DNA of 64,000 nt from an uncultured Candidatus Saccharibacteria bacterium. GTDB lineage: Bacteria; Patescibacteriota; Minisyncoccia; UBA6257; UBA9933. How positions within the stretch are numbered: the stretch's first letter is position 1; every line of letters starts with the position of its first letter. Below are positions 45,182-48,142 of the stretch, piece after piece. The position numbers and the translations under genes are program-made. The stretch lies in NCBI GenBank assembly GCA_964642155.1, contig CAZXNT010000003.1:64899-128898 (forward strand), in the 5' to 3' direction. A model generated the notes under the pieces. It saw only the letters and a list, made by a program, of their open reading frames with translations, was not told the origin of the DNA and did not search any database.

Positions 45182-48142
45182 TTAAATCACGAAATTAATA
45201 AGTTTATTCGGGACAAAAATTATTTTTTTGATTTTTTGCCCGGAAACGGCATTTTTTATTTTCTCCCGCTTTAATATTAATTCTTCCGCTTCTTTTTGAA
45301 CAATGCCGATTTTTGCCGCGACTTTATCTTTAAATTTTCCATTTATCTGAATAATCAATTCAAATTGTTCTTCAATAATCAATTTTAGATTATATTTGGG
45401 CCATTGTTCAATGTGAATGCTTTTAAAAGTTTGTAGTTTATAGTTTGTAGTTTGTAGTTGTTGCCATAATTCTTCCGCCAAATGAGGCGCGAAAGGAGCG
45501 AGTAATTTAATTATCAATTTCCAATTTCCAATTTCCAATGACGGTTGTTTTTCTATTTCATTGAATAAAATCATCAGCGAACTTATTGCCGTATTAAAGC
45601 GAAAGTTTTCAATATCTTCTGTTACTTTTTTGATTGTTTGGTGTAATAACCTTTCAAATTTTGAATTTTGAATTTTAGATTTTGAAATTTTAGAAGTTAT
45701 TTTATATATTCTATTAATAAATCTTTTCATCCCTCTGATTCCGTCTATATCCCAAGCAATACTTTGCATAAACGGTCCGAGGAACATTTCATATAAACGC
45801 AACGAATCCGCGCCGAATTGTTGAATCATATCGTCGGGATTAACCACATTATTCCAACGCTTGGACATTTTTCGCCCGTCTTCGGCCAATATCAAACCTT
45901 GATTAACCAATTTTTTAAAAGGCTCTTTTGTTGAAACTGCCTTAATATCATATAAAAATTTATGCCAAAAACGAGCATATAGAAGATGGCGAGTCGCATG
46001 CTCCACTCCGCCCACATATAAATCAACCGGCAACCATTTATTGATTATCTTTTTATCCCAGACATATTTTTTGCCCTTTTTAATCAAATAGCCGATGTAA
46101 TACCAGCAAGAACCGGCCCACTGAGGCATTGTATTTGTTTCACGCTTGGCAATTCCCTTGCATTTTGGACATTTTATATTCACCCATTTATCAATTTTAA
46201 CCAATGGCGATTCTCCAGTGCCCGTTGGCTCATAATATTTAACGTCCGGCAATTTTACCGGCAGATTATTTTCCGGAATCTGAATCCATCCGGGATTCAT
46301 CAATCCGCCTTTTGTAAATTCTTCTTTTCTATATTTACCACTTTTTATTTTCTTCGCGCAAGCTTCGCAATAAACCAACGGAAACGGTTCTCCCCAATAT
46401 CTCTGACGGGCAAAAACCCAGTCGCGCATTTTATAATTTATTTTTCTAGCGCCGAATTTATTTTTTTCAAGCCACTTTACCATTTTCTCGCGAGCCTTTT
46501 CAGAAGTTAATCCGGAAAATTGACCAGAGTTAACTACAAAACCGTCATCAATAAATGCTGTTTCATTTTCCTTAAGCCTTTTAATCCAAACATCCAATTC
46601 CGCATGGCACAATGTGCCGTAATTAATTTCGCTTTCATCAATCCACATCATCTCATGTTCATCCGCCCAATCTTTATCTACGGCAGATTTTTCATCGTTA
46701 ATCAAATCAAACATAACCGCCGTCGTAAAAGCAATTCTGTTTTCATCTTTATGTTTAGCAAAATATTCCGCCCGTACTTCTCCGCCCAAAATTTTTACCA
46801 ACTTAAGATTTTTATAACCTGTTTCTTCCTCTACTTCTCTTTTTGCCGCATCAACAAAACTTTCATTTTCTTCAATCCCGCCCATTGGAAAAGTAACCCA
46901 TAAAAACTTTTTTGACCTTAAGCATAAAAATTTATTATTTTTCGGATTCCGCACAAGAACATGAACATTTTTTCTTGCTTGTGTTTTTTTACCCTCAACA
47001 GGAGGATTTTTAATATCTACTCTATTGGGAATAATAACTTCTTTAATCGGCAAATTGTATTTTTTAGCAAATTCCCAATCGCGTTCATCATGCGCCGGCA
47101 CCGCCATCACCGCGCCGGTGCCATAATGCCCCAAAACATAATCAGCGACAAAAATAGACACCTCTTCATTATTGAAAGGATTGAGCGCTTTGATACCTTT
47201 TAATTCCACGCCGGTTTTCTCTTTTGCTAAATCAGTTCTTTGTAAGTCGGATTTCTTTTTTGAATCGTCAATATACCGCTTAACTTCTCCATAATTCATA
47301 ATTCCTAATTCATTATTCTGAATAATCGAATGCTCCGGCGCGACCACCAAATAAGTACAGCCGAAAATAGTGTCTAAACGAGTGGTAAATACTTCAATTG
47401 GAAATTGGAAATTGGAAATTGGAAATTTTATAACGGCACCCTGAGATTTCCCTATCCAATTTCTTTGCTGTTCTTTGATTGATTCCGGCCAATCTAATGA
47501 TTTTAAACCGTCCAAAAGTTTTTCCGCATAAGCGGTCATTTTTAAAACCCACTGCCGTAAAGGCTTTTTTTCAATCTCACTACCGCACCTTTCGCACTTG
47601 CCGTTTTCCAAATCTTCCAGAGCCAAACCGGTTTTACAACTTGGACACCAAATAATCGGCTCCCGCGATTCATAAACCAAGCCGTTTTCAAAAAGTTTTA
47701 AAAATATCCATTGAGTCCACTTATAATATTCCAAATCAGTAGTATTGACTTCCTTTTTCCAATCGTAAGTAAAGCCGAATTTGCTAAGCTGTTCTTTAAA
47801 TCGCTTGATATTTTTTTGAACCGCTATTTTGGGATGAATTTTATTTTTAAGCGCGTAATTTTCCGCCGGCAATCCAAAAGCATCCCAGCCCATGGGATGC
47901 AAAACGCTATAACCCTGCATCATTTTAAAACGAGCGACTATATCGGTGGCAATATACCCCCTCGGATGGCCAACGTGAAGCCCGTCTCCCGAAGGATACG
48001 GAAACATATCTAAAACATAGAATTTCTTCGATTTTTTGTAATTTTTATAAATCCCTTCTTTCTCCCATATTTTTTGCCACTTTTTCTCAATCTTGTTGAA
48101 ATCCATATTGAATATGTTATCACCGCAAAAAGAACTTATCAA
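45182..48142 (-). CDS. leuS: leucyl-tRNA synthetase with inserted NUDIX domain
   Basis: HIGH-type motif (HVGHP), KMSKR (KMSKRWNN), CP1 editing region (TTRLDT...[15 protein letters not shown]). About 165-aa insertion carrying NUDIX box. Confidence 0.9.
   Translation of the reverse strand: [986 protein letters not shown]
46544..47032 (-). other. NUDIX-fold domain inserted in LeuRS (residues about 371-533)
   Basis: [23 protein letters not shown] = GX5EX7REUXEEXGU at residues 421-443, between the editing domain and the leucyl-specific region. Confidence 0.6.

Follow-up and report, generated by a model that had tools for sequence, protein, structure and literature searches.

Bacterial leucyl-tRNA synthetases (LeuRS) such as those of Thermus thermophilus (1H3N, 2BYT) and Escherichia coli (4AQ7) consist of a Rossmann core, a zinc module, the CP1 editing domain, an anticodon-binding domain and a C-terminal domain. 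The leuS gene described here lies in a 64,000-nucleotide stretch of DNA (the window; positions 64,899-128,898 of contig CAZXNT010000003.1, assembly GCA_964642155.1) from an uncultured Candidatus Saccharibacteria bacterium. Its product has the same domains and signature motifs and, in addition, contains a NUDIX hydrolase domain that is nested in CP1. A described combination of an adenylyl-transferring enzyme and a Nudix domain in one chain is NadM-Nudix, a bifunctional nicotinamide mononucleotide adenylyltransferase and ADP-ribose pyrophosphatase. NadM-Nudix joins a HIGH-motif Rossmann enzyme that transfers an adenylyl group to a Nudix hydrolase that acts on a related nucleotide (PMC7824862). 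NadM-Nudix-type NCBIfam models weakly match the LeuRS insert. However, NadM-Nudix is not a synthetase, its Nudix domain is specific for ADP-ribose or NAD, and its two parts are joined by a terminal fusion and not by an internal insertion.

Among class Ia aminoacyl-tRNA synthetases (aaRS), an added catalytic domain is already known from the isoleucyl-tRNA synthetase with an N-acetyltransferase domain (NF040702), whose model is also found in the match list of the present protein; there, the added domain is GNAT and not NUDIX. The Ap(n)A hydrolases and RppH (E. coli RppH 7SP3/4S2X, T. thermophilus Ndx1 1VC8, A. aeolicus 3I7U, C. trachomatis CT771 and lupin 1F3Y) resemble the insert in their minimal single-domain Nudix fold and full Nudix box, but they are free-standing and 16-28% identical to it, whereas the insert and its relatives are embedded in or adjoin a synthetase. 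In the full-text literature, whose coverage leaves out most subscription journals, we came across no account of a Nudix domain within LeuRS or another aaRS. This agrees with an earlier note on the window made from its letters alone (the original prediction), which knew of no such insertion. The sequences are already public with automatic Pfam labels; the nesting in CP1, the occurrence in several synthetases and the lateral exchange of the domain as a cassette are the unexpected part.

The gene and the elements of its product are as follows.

45182-48142, minus strand: leuS gene (open reading frame list, TIGR00396, NCBI copy P0009, Foldseek)
47966-47977, minus strand: HIGH signature, here HVGH, residues 56-59 (HVGH in 87/93 and HIGH in 6/93 aligned LeuRS)
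47030-47467, minus strand: CP1 editing domain, part 1, residues 226-371 (PF13603 positions 1-147 of 185 at residues 227-378)
46565-47029, minus strand: inserted NUDIX domain, residues 372-526 (alignment to T. thermophilus LeuRS, PF00293)
46814-46882, minus strand: Nudix box, residues 421-443 (six-frame motif scan)
46466-46564, minus strand: CP1 editing domain, part 2, residues 527-559 (PF13603 complete after in-silico removal of the insert)
45857-45871, minus strand: KMSKS signature, here KMSKR, residues 758-762 (KMSKR in 85/93 and KMSKS in 7/93 aligned LeuRS)

The position of the insert was defined by alignment to T. thermophilus LeuRS (1H3N). Residues 17-371 of the query correspond to T. thermophilus residues 8-363 and residues 527-753 to residues 374-579, and query residues 372-526 (155 aa) take the place of the 10-aa loop 364-373. 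The net gain is approximately 145 aa, fewer than the 165 or so extra residues that were originally counted. PF13603 covers only its positions 1-147 of 185 before the insert but becomes a single stretch (1-185/185, residues 227-404 of the deletion construct) once residues 372-526 are removed. The insert is thus located within CP1 and not beyond its end, where the original prediction had put it. The NUDIX domain is therefore nested in a domain, CP1, that in turn is inserted into the Rossmann fold.

The Pfam NUDIX model PF00293 matches residues 390-506 with 53.4 bits (E 3.5e-14, gathering cut-off 21.1), and the excised segment alone (residues 371-533, positions 46544-47032) reaches 58 bits. The box at residues 421-443 fits the pattern G-x5-E-x7-R-E-U-x-E-E-x-G-U, with Tyr as the last U. 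In an AlphaFold2 model of the whole LeuRS, calculated from a 93-sequence alignment (mean predicted local distance difference test score (pLDDT) 90, predicted template modelling score 0.82), the insert has a pLDDT of 91-96 and adopts the alpha/beta/alpha sandwich of the Nudix fold. The profile match, the placement on a solved bacterial LeuRS and the confident model all bear out the complete Nudix box and fold that had been recognized in the letters.

An intein-like element was also considered as the nature of the insert. Similar to inteins and other mobile in-frame inserts, the domain occupies an essential gene, is patchy among close relatives and moves laterally, and one relative contains DUF559 near CP1. 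Unlike inteins, the insert has a conserved enzyme fold, is modelled by AlphaFold as a stable part of the protein and displays nothing that points to splicing out. In a Pfam scan of the excised segment at E up to 1, NUDIX alone was listed, with no intein, Hint or LAGLIDADG domain. An intein-like element was ruled out by this lack of a splicing or endonuclease domain in the insert.

The host protein is recognized as LeuRS independently of the insert. The bacterial equivalog model TIGR00396 (leuS_bact; cut-off 548.4) gives it 983.5 bits, with the match broken into three stretches by the insert, and Foldseek places the whole structure model closest to the LeuRS of T. thermophilus and E. coli (E 1e-80 to 1e-75). 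CP1 part 1 contains the T-rich motif TTRLDT (residues 253-258) and PAHDERD (residues 349-355), both of which are kept in 93/93 aligned LeuRS. Because the HIGH, KMSKS, TTRxDT and PAHDERD motifs are kept and CP1 is complete without the insert, the host looks like a LeuRS with a working aminoacylation site and a working editing site. In addition to the exchanged CP1 loop, the protein differs from T. thermophilus LeuRS at two places. T. thermophilus residues 580-637, which we take to be the leucine-specific domain, have no counterpart (query residues approximately 753-759), and 22 extra residues (approximately 597-618) follow the CEAC zinc motif.

The open reading frame is uninterrupted and specifies 986 aa from a TTG start. 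The length of 986 aa given in the original prediction holds for this frame, but the protein itself is likely 974 aa long. The NCBI copy P0009 (100% identical, on a 146,588-bp contig) has 974 aa, which implies that the real start is probably the ATG at 48106, 12 codons downstream of the TTG. Residues 1-10 have a pLDDT below 50 in the model, and the TTG overlaps the stop of the upstream gene by 4 bp. Base composition is even along leuS. An Rfam scan revealed no leader element near leuS, its matches being four tRNAs only.

Is the insert an active enzyme or a decaying passenger? Conservation was counted over 79 insert-bearing LeuRS, whose bodies average 62% identity. In the box, E436, E440 and G442 are conserved at 100%, E439 at 99% and R435 at 94%; outside the box, R390, K465, N468, R469 and W500 are conserved at 92-100%. 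Positions 460 and 461 are aromatic in 95-97% of the proteins, with Y, F or W at Y460 (+17 from the box) in 76/79 and F or Y at F461 (+18) in 77/79. The strict Nudix-box pattern is matched by 94 of the 105 LeuRS homologs that bear PF00293, and most of the variant boxes keep the metal-binding glutamates as well. The ratio of nonsynonymous to synonymous substitution rates (dN/dS) is 0.08-0.16 in the NUDIX core; for the LeuRS body, compared with ortholog P0010, it is 0.05-0.09. With its catalytic residues conserved and its dN/dS low, the insert appears to bear the signature of a selectively maintained, functional enzyme rather than that of a decaying passenger.

LeuRS-NUDIX is a clade-wide architecture and not a peculiarity of the source genome. 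PF00293 is present in 105 of the 120 best LeuRS matches, mostly from Patescibacteria, so the same insertion does recur in related genomes; where source names are given among these 120, they are Wolfe-, Moran-, Pace- and Vogelbacteria and Parcubacteria. A scan of one genome per GTDB species with a query that comprised the full insert and its flanks retrieved many loci, including ones from Taylor-, Magasanik-, Jorgensen-, Kaiser- and Gracilibacteria, Absconditabacterales and gut metagenome-assembled genomes labelled Bacilli or Clostridia. Among these 'Bacilli' hosts is Candidatus Pelethosoma, which is placed in Mycoplasmatota. Several of the host genes labelled Bacilli or Clostridia are broken under translation table 11, which probably reflects organisms that read TGA as Trp.

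The insert degrades the automatic annotation of this essential gene. NCBI often names these proteins only 'class I tRNA ligase family protein' (P0394-P0396 and P0027 are examples), and fragments are named 'NUDIX domain-containing protein, partial'; with such vague names, LeuRS can be missed in metabolic reconstructions of Patescibacteria. Other domains also occur beside CP1. The LeuRS P0076, P0059 and P0079 have alpha/beta-hydrolase matches there (in P0059 a Ser_hydrolase match above its Pfam cut-off, in P0076 matches just below theirs), and P0064 has a DUF559 endonuclease domain at residues 266-367. Some LeuRS with extra domains beside CP1 also carry NUDIX and are thereby as long as approximately 1,560 aa. 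Domain insertion thus seems to concentrate at the borders of CP1.

The insert and the LeuRS body have different histories. Body and insert identities are uncorrelated over 3,081 LeuRS pairs (Pearson 0.08), and in a body-only tree the query clade, which has NUDIX, falls within a group of 14 NUDIX-less LeuRS. The exchanged segment and the identities of four informative pairs, with the cassette taken as aa 350-530, are given below.

46523-47152, minus strand: exchanged cassette, codons approximately 331-540, running from the last portion of CP1 part 1 through NUDIX into the first portion of CP1 part 2 (comparison with the P0018 gene)
Query and ortholog P0010 (same neighbours): body 92%, cassette 74%
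Query and P0018: body 51%, cassette 93%
P0010 and P0027: body 53%, cassette 87%
P0018 and P0027 (sister bodies): body 92%, cassette 73%

In the nucleotide alignment with the P0018 gene, identity over codons 331-540 is 90-94% (0.73-0.90 at third positions), whereas the flanks are 47-70% identical, with third-position identity of 0.30-0.57, which is near saturation. Likewise, dS rises from 0.33 within the cassette to 1.3-1.7 in its flanks. Because of this contrast between cassette and flanks and the discordant body and cassette identities of the pairs, at least two cross-clade exchanges of a cassette of roughly 630 nt are needed. A highly conserved left stretch that ends in IKEVI probably anchors the recombination. 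Vertical inheritance with losses was ruled out as the whole story by the lack of correlation and by the sister bodies that carry different cassette alleles. A chimeric P0018 contig is unlikely, given that two crossovers within approximately 630 nt at 92% identity would be required and that the independent pairs of P0010, P0011 and P0012 with P0027 display the same pattern on several long contigs. An 'AF..DG' motif shared with NUDIX-less relatives was considered as the remnant of a deleted insert and rejected; it also aligns to T. thermophilus LeuRS (RAYEEPG), and thus the motif is native to CP1 and gives no sign of loss.

The domain belongs to a distinct NUDIX subfamily that, judged from hosts and gene neighbours, is tied to aaRS of both classes. 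When the insert alone was searched against 1.84 billion representative proteins, 155 matches at E <=1e-10 were obtained, and the best 150 were classified. At least 102 of these 150 lie inside LeuRS, as confirmed by Pfam, with one copy in 93 proteins, two copies in 7 and three copies in 2; every copy of the triple-copy LeuRS has a Nudix-box match. The copies occupy three insertion sites: site A inside CP1, which is the site used in the window, site B between the N-terminal catalytic half and CP1, and site C after CP1 in the catalytic core. Outside LeuRS, P0260 is a prolyl-tRNA synthetase (ProRS) that consists of a class II core, an anticodon-binding domain, NUDIX (residues 398-515) and ProRS-C. 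ProRS-NUDIX is rare (P0260, P0275, P0276 and some fragments). The nearest NUDIX-less ProRS of P0260 that are named come from Nanoarchaeota, Woesearchaeota and Pacearchaeota (DPANN), and the ProRS case suggests that the cassette crossed between domains of life.

Stand-alone members of the subfamily, for which a metagenome scan with an alignment of eight such sequences was also used, are frequently encoded next to aaRS genes. One such context is located 3 bp downstream of a cysteinyl-tRNA synthetase (CysRS) gene and convergent with a NUDIX-less LeuRS gene (L088-L091), another is one gene away from ProRS (L087, L092), and a third adjoins a methionyl-tRNA synthetase (MetRS) and a class II aaRS fragment (L097). 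A fourth lies 3 bp upstream of a LeuRS that itself has an internal NUDIX (L110:4905-8350). In a separate locus, L098:1-1106, two NUDIX genes stand in tandem. The L110 and L098 arrangements may be intermediates in cassette fusion, fission or duplication. Overall, an aaRS neighbour is present in about 5 of roughly 14 distinct stand-alone contexts, compared with a rough chance expectation of <10% that is an estimate rather than a formal test.

The insert resembles characterized Nudix enzymes only distantly. Its best NCBIfam matches are RppH/NudH (PRK00714) models, with 25-31 bits against cut-offs of 116-259, and the stand-alone relatives P0006 and P0146 score 16-26 bits on the RppH/NudH models. 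When the family profile was compared with PDB sequences, 2AZW ranked first (E 1.3e-10) and the Ap4A hydrolases CT771, 3I7U and 1F3Y were in the top nine, and Foldseek gave a comparable result; PDB sequence and profile matches together include the Ap4A/Ap6A hydrolases 5cfi, 1vc8, 3i7u, 1f3y and CT771. Like the Ap(n)A hydrolase and RppH group, the insert has a basic cluster and, 17-18 positions past the box, an aromatic residue. Ap(n)A hydrolases reportedly have a Tyr about 16-18 residues after the box (Dunn et al. 1999), which serves as a lead rather than a verified rule. The nearest characterized class may thus be the Ap(n)A hydrolase/RppH group, with weak discrimination.

What would such a hydrolase do in a synthetase? 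What LeuRS (class I) and ProRS (class II) have in common is mainly adenylate chemistry and tRNA binding; their catalytic folds are unrelated. Diadenosine tetraphosphate (Ap4A) and related Ap4N are made mainly by aaRS from an aminoacyl-adenylate and a nucleoside triphosphate (NTP), and Nudix enzymes cleave Ap4A to ATP and AMP (PMC13627108). In the insert, the basic residues R390, H464, K465, R469 and H496 and the aromatic residues Y460/F461 and W500 would suit a polyphosphate chain and stacked bases. On the basis of the shared adenylate chemistry, the aaRS origin of Ap4N, these residues and the RppH/NudH and Ap(n)A hydrolase matches, we tentatively propose that the insert clears Ap4A/Ap4N-type dinucleoside polyphosphates that synthetases make. 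The insert would be a pyrophosphohydrolase that actively cleaves nucleotides whose polyphosphate chain is long, and its likeliest substrates would form when ATP or another NTP, rather than tRNA, attacks the aminoacyl-adenylate. A hydrolase tethered to the synthetase could clear this by-product at its source and give back ATP and AMP to these small-genome organisms, which probably depend on nucleotide salvage. Because the host synthetase, the insertion site and the copy number all vary, being close to the synthetase is probably more important than a set orientation towards the LeuRS active sites. Among the functions that the original prediction had put forward, Ap4A hydrolysis appears to be the best supported; for hydrolysis of aminoacyl-adenylates, another of them, we know of no precedent in Nudix chemistry.

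Several observations weigh against Ap4N clearance. The main Ap4A producer is named as lysyl-tRNA synthetase (LysRS), not LeuRS (PMC13627108). No LysRS host was found among the 150 nearest proteins, in which the classifier tested LeuRS flanks only and other hosts were recognized by eye. The insert approaches no curated NCBIfam cut-off, and its clear best match, 2azw, an Enterococcus faecalis 'MutT/nudix family protein', is uncharacterized and itself above no NCBIfam cut-off. That protein, a structural-genomics entry, is free-standing, 19% identical to the insert and given no function in its entry description, and a subfamily assignment through it was dropped on the grounds that it is uncharacterized and below all cut-offs. 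About nine of the roughly fourteen stand-alone contexts have no aaRS neighbour, several of those contigs being short. Finally, the exchange between lineages, the variable copy number and the hydrolase or endonuclease domains that are inserted alongside could point to a role in biological conflict.

Alternative explanations differ in how they account for the association with synthetases. The NUDIX domain could serve general nucleotide house-cleaning or salvage as a MutT-like or broad NTP/NDP-X pyrophosphatase without any mechanistic link to aminoacylation, with leuS being merely a safe, essential and constitutively expressed site or the cassette spreading by recombination and being hard to delete cleanly. 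This is unlikely, as it fails to account for the 102 of 150 matches in LeuRS, the entry into ProRS and the free copies beside CysRS, ProRS, MetRS and LeuRS; a neutral passenger is opposed by the strong purifying selection on catalytic residues. The RppH/NudH matches raise the alternative that the domain is an RNA 5'-end pyrophosphohydrolase or decapping enzyme that acts on RNA held by the synthetase, such as 5'-triphosphorylated or Np4A-capped tRNA precursors or further RNAs bound by LeuRS. We regard this activity as rather more doubtful, since those scores fall far under the family cut-offs and the variable insertion sites disfavour a fixed position near the acceptor end. Moreover, the 5' end of mature tRNA is a base-paired monophosphate, whereas RppH needs unpaired 5' nucleotides. 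Still further from catalysis, the insert could be a structural or regulatory module, either a nucleotide sensor or an RNA- or protein-binding surface that modulates editing. Metal-binding glutamates at 99-100% in 79 LeuRS are unexpected for a pure binding module, and the Nudix-box matches at all copies of the triple-copy proteins add to this, which makes a non-catalytic role highly improbable.

Conflict would explain the mobility of the cassette in another manner, as a module that guards the synthetase or its tRNA against nucleotide-based toxins or phage effectors. The domain might hydrolyse a toxic adenylate-like or ADP-ribose-derived compound, or free the tRNA 3' end, which enters CP1, of a pyrophosphate or ADP-ribose mark. 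Several features typical of conflict systems speak for such a role: alleles have been exchanged repeatedly between clades, presence is patchy among close relatives, there are one to three copies at three insertion sites, and relatives have alpha/beta-hydrolase and DUF559 endonuclease domains co-inserted beside CP1. CP1 is also the domain that receives the tRNA 3' end. On the other hand, the locus has no visible toxin, immunity or phage genes in its surroundings, where the neighbours are housekeeping genes in synteny with the ortholog; dN/dS is low and not diversifying; and, to our knowledge, no Nudix enzyme acts on substrates of this type. It is thus improbable that a mobile cassette colonizes aaRS genes (LeuRS and the DPANN-type ProRS) as a guard module in biological conflict. 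If it did, episymbiotic microbes would have defence domains of a new class built into their core translation enzymes. All of these readings presuppose a genuine fusion. A frameshifted or chimeric assembly that joined a NUDIX gene to leuS, the outcome that would have undone the original prediction, finds a foothold in the relatives P0001 and P0002, which are on error-ridden contigs with coverage near 1x. It is ruled out for practical purposes by the continuous reading frame, the in-frame resumption of CP1, the even base composition, the identical protein on the 146-kb NCBI contig, the same junctions in many independent assemblies and samples, and the AlphaFold model, which treats the whole chain confidently. 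Ap4N clearance is the reading that we tentatively favour.

The window contains a second NUDIX gene, which was correctly predicted to be broken.

Approximately 9453-9876, minus strand: stand-alone NUDIX gene, 141 aa, box GLNKGDESPKQIFVRELEEELGI, with an in-frame TAA at 9757-9759

Its product scores 46.8 bits on PF00293 when the TAA is translated as sense; the stop could reflect a pseudogene, a sequencing error or recoding. An origin of the LeuRS insert from this gene was ruled out, as the two have in common only the generic box (BLASTP E 0.055). Upstream of leuS, at 48139-49017 on the minus strand, the window encodes a 292-aa protein with an Ala/Pro/Ile-rich repeat (…PIAPVAPIAPIASTSTSTAPIEPIAS…), whose ortholog in L086 has a lamin-tail (LTD) domain. 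The gene order of thioredoxin reductase, LTD protein, LeuRS, a 307-aa protein and a trypsin-like protease is common to the window and the ortholog from Hainich groundwater. A tRNA at 37745-37821 on the plus strand has the anticodon TAT and was called tRNA-Ile; it overlaps the end of the mechanically called open reading frame 37756-38265 on the minus strand. Few bacteria use a UAU anticodon; AUA is usually read by a tRNA with a modified CAU anticodon.

Bacterial aaRS rarely carry additional catalytic domains, and yet the NUDIX insert is the prevailing form among the closest LeuRS relatives in a major bacterial radiation. The exchange between leuS genes that are approximately 51-53% identical means that an essential translation gene can be remodelled by recombination at the scale of less than a domain, which matters for phylogenies that use aaRS as marker genes. 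If Ap4N clearance is true, the production and removal of a stress-signalling nucleotide would be physically coupled in one protein, and the Ap4A hydrolase of these lineages would be identified.

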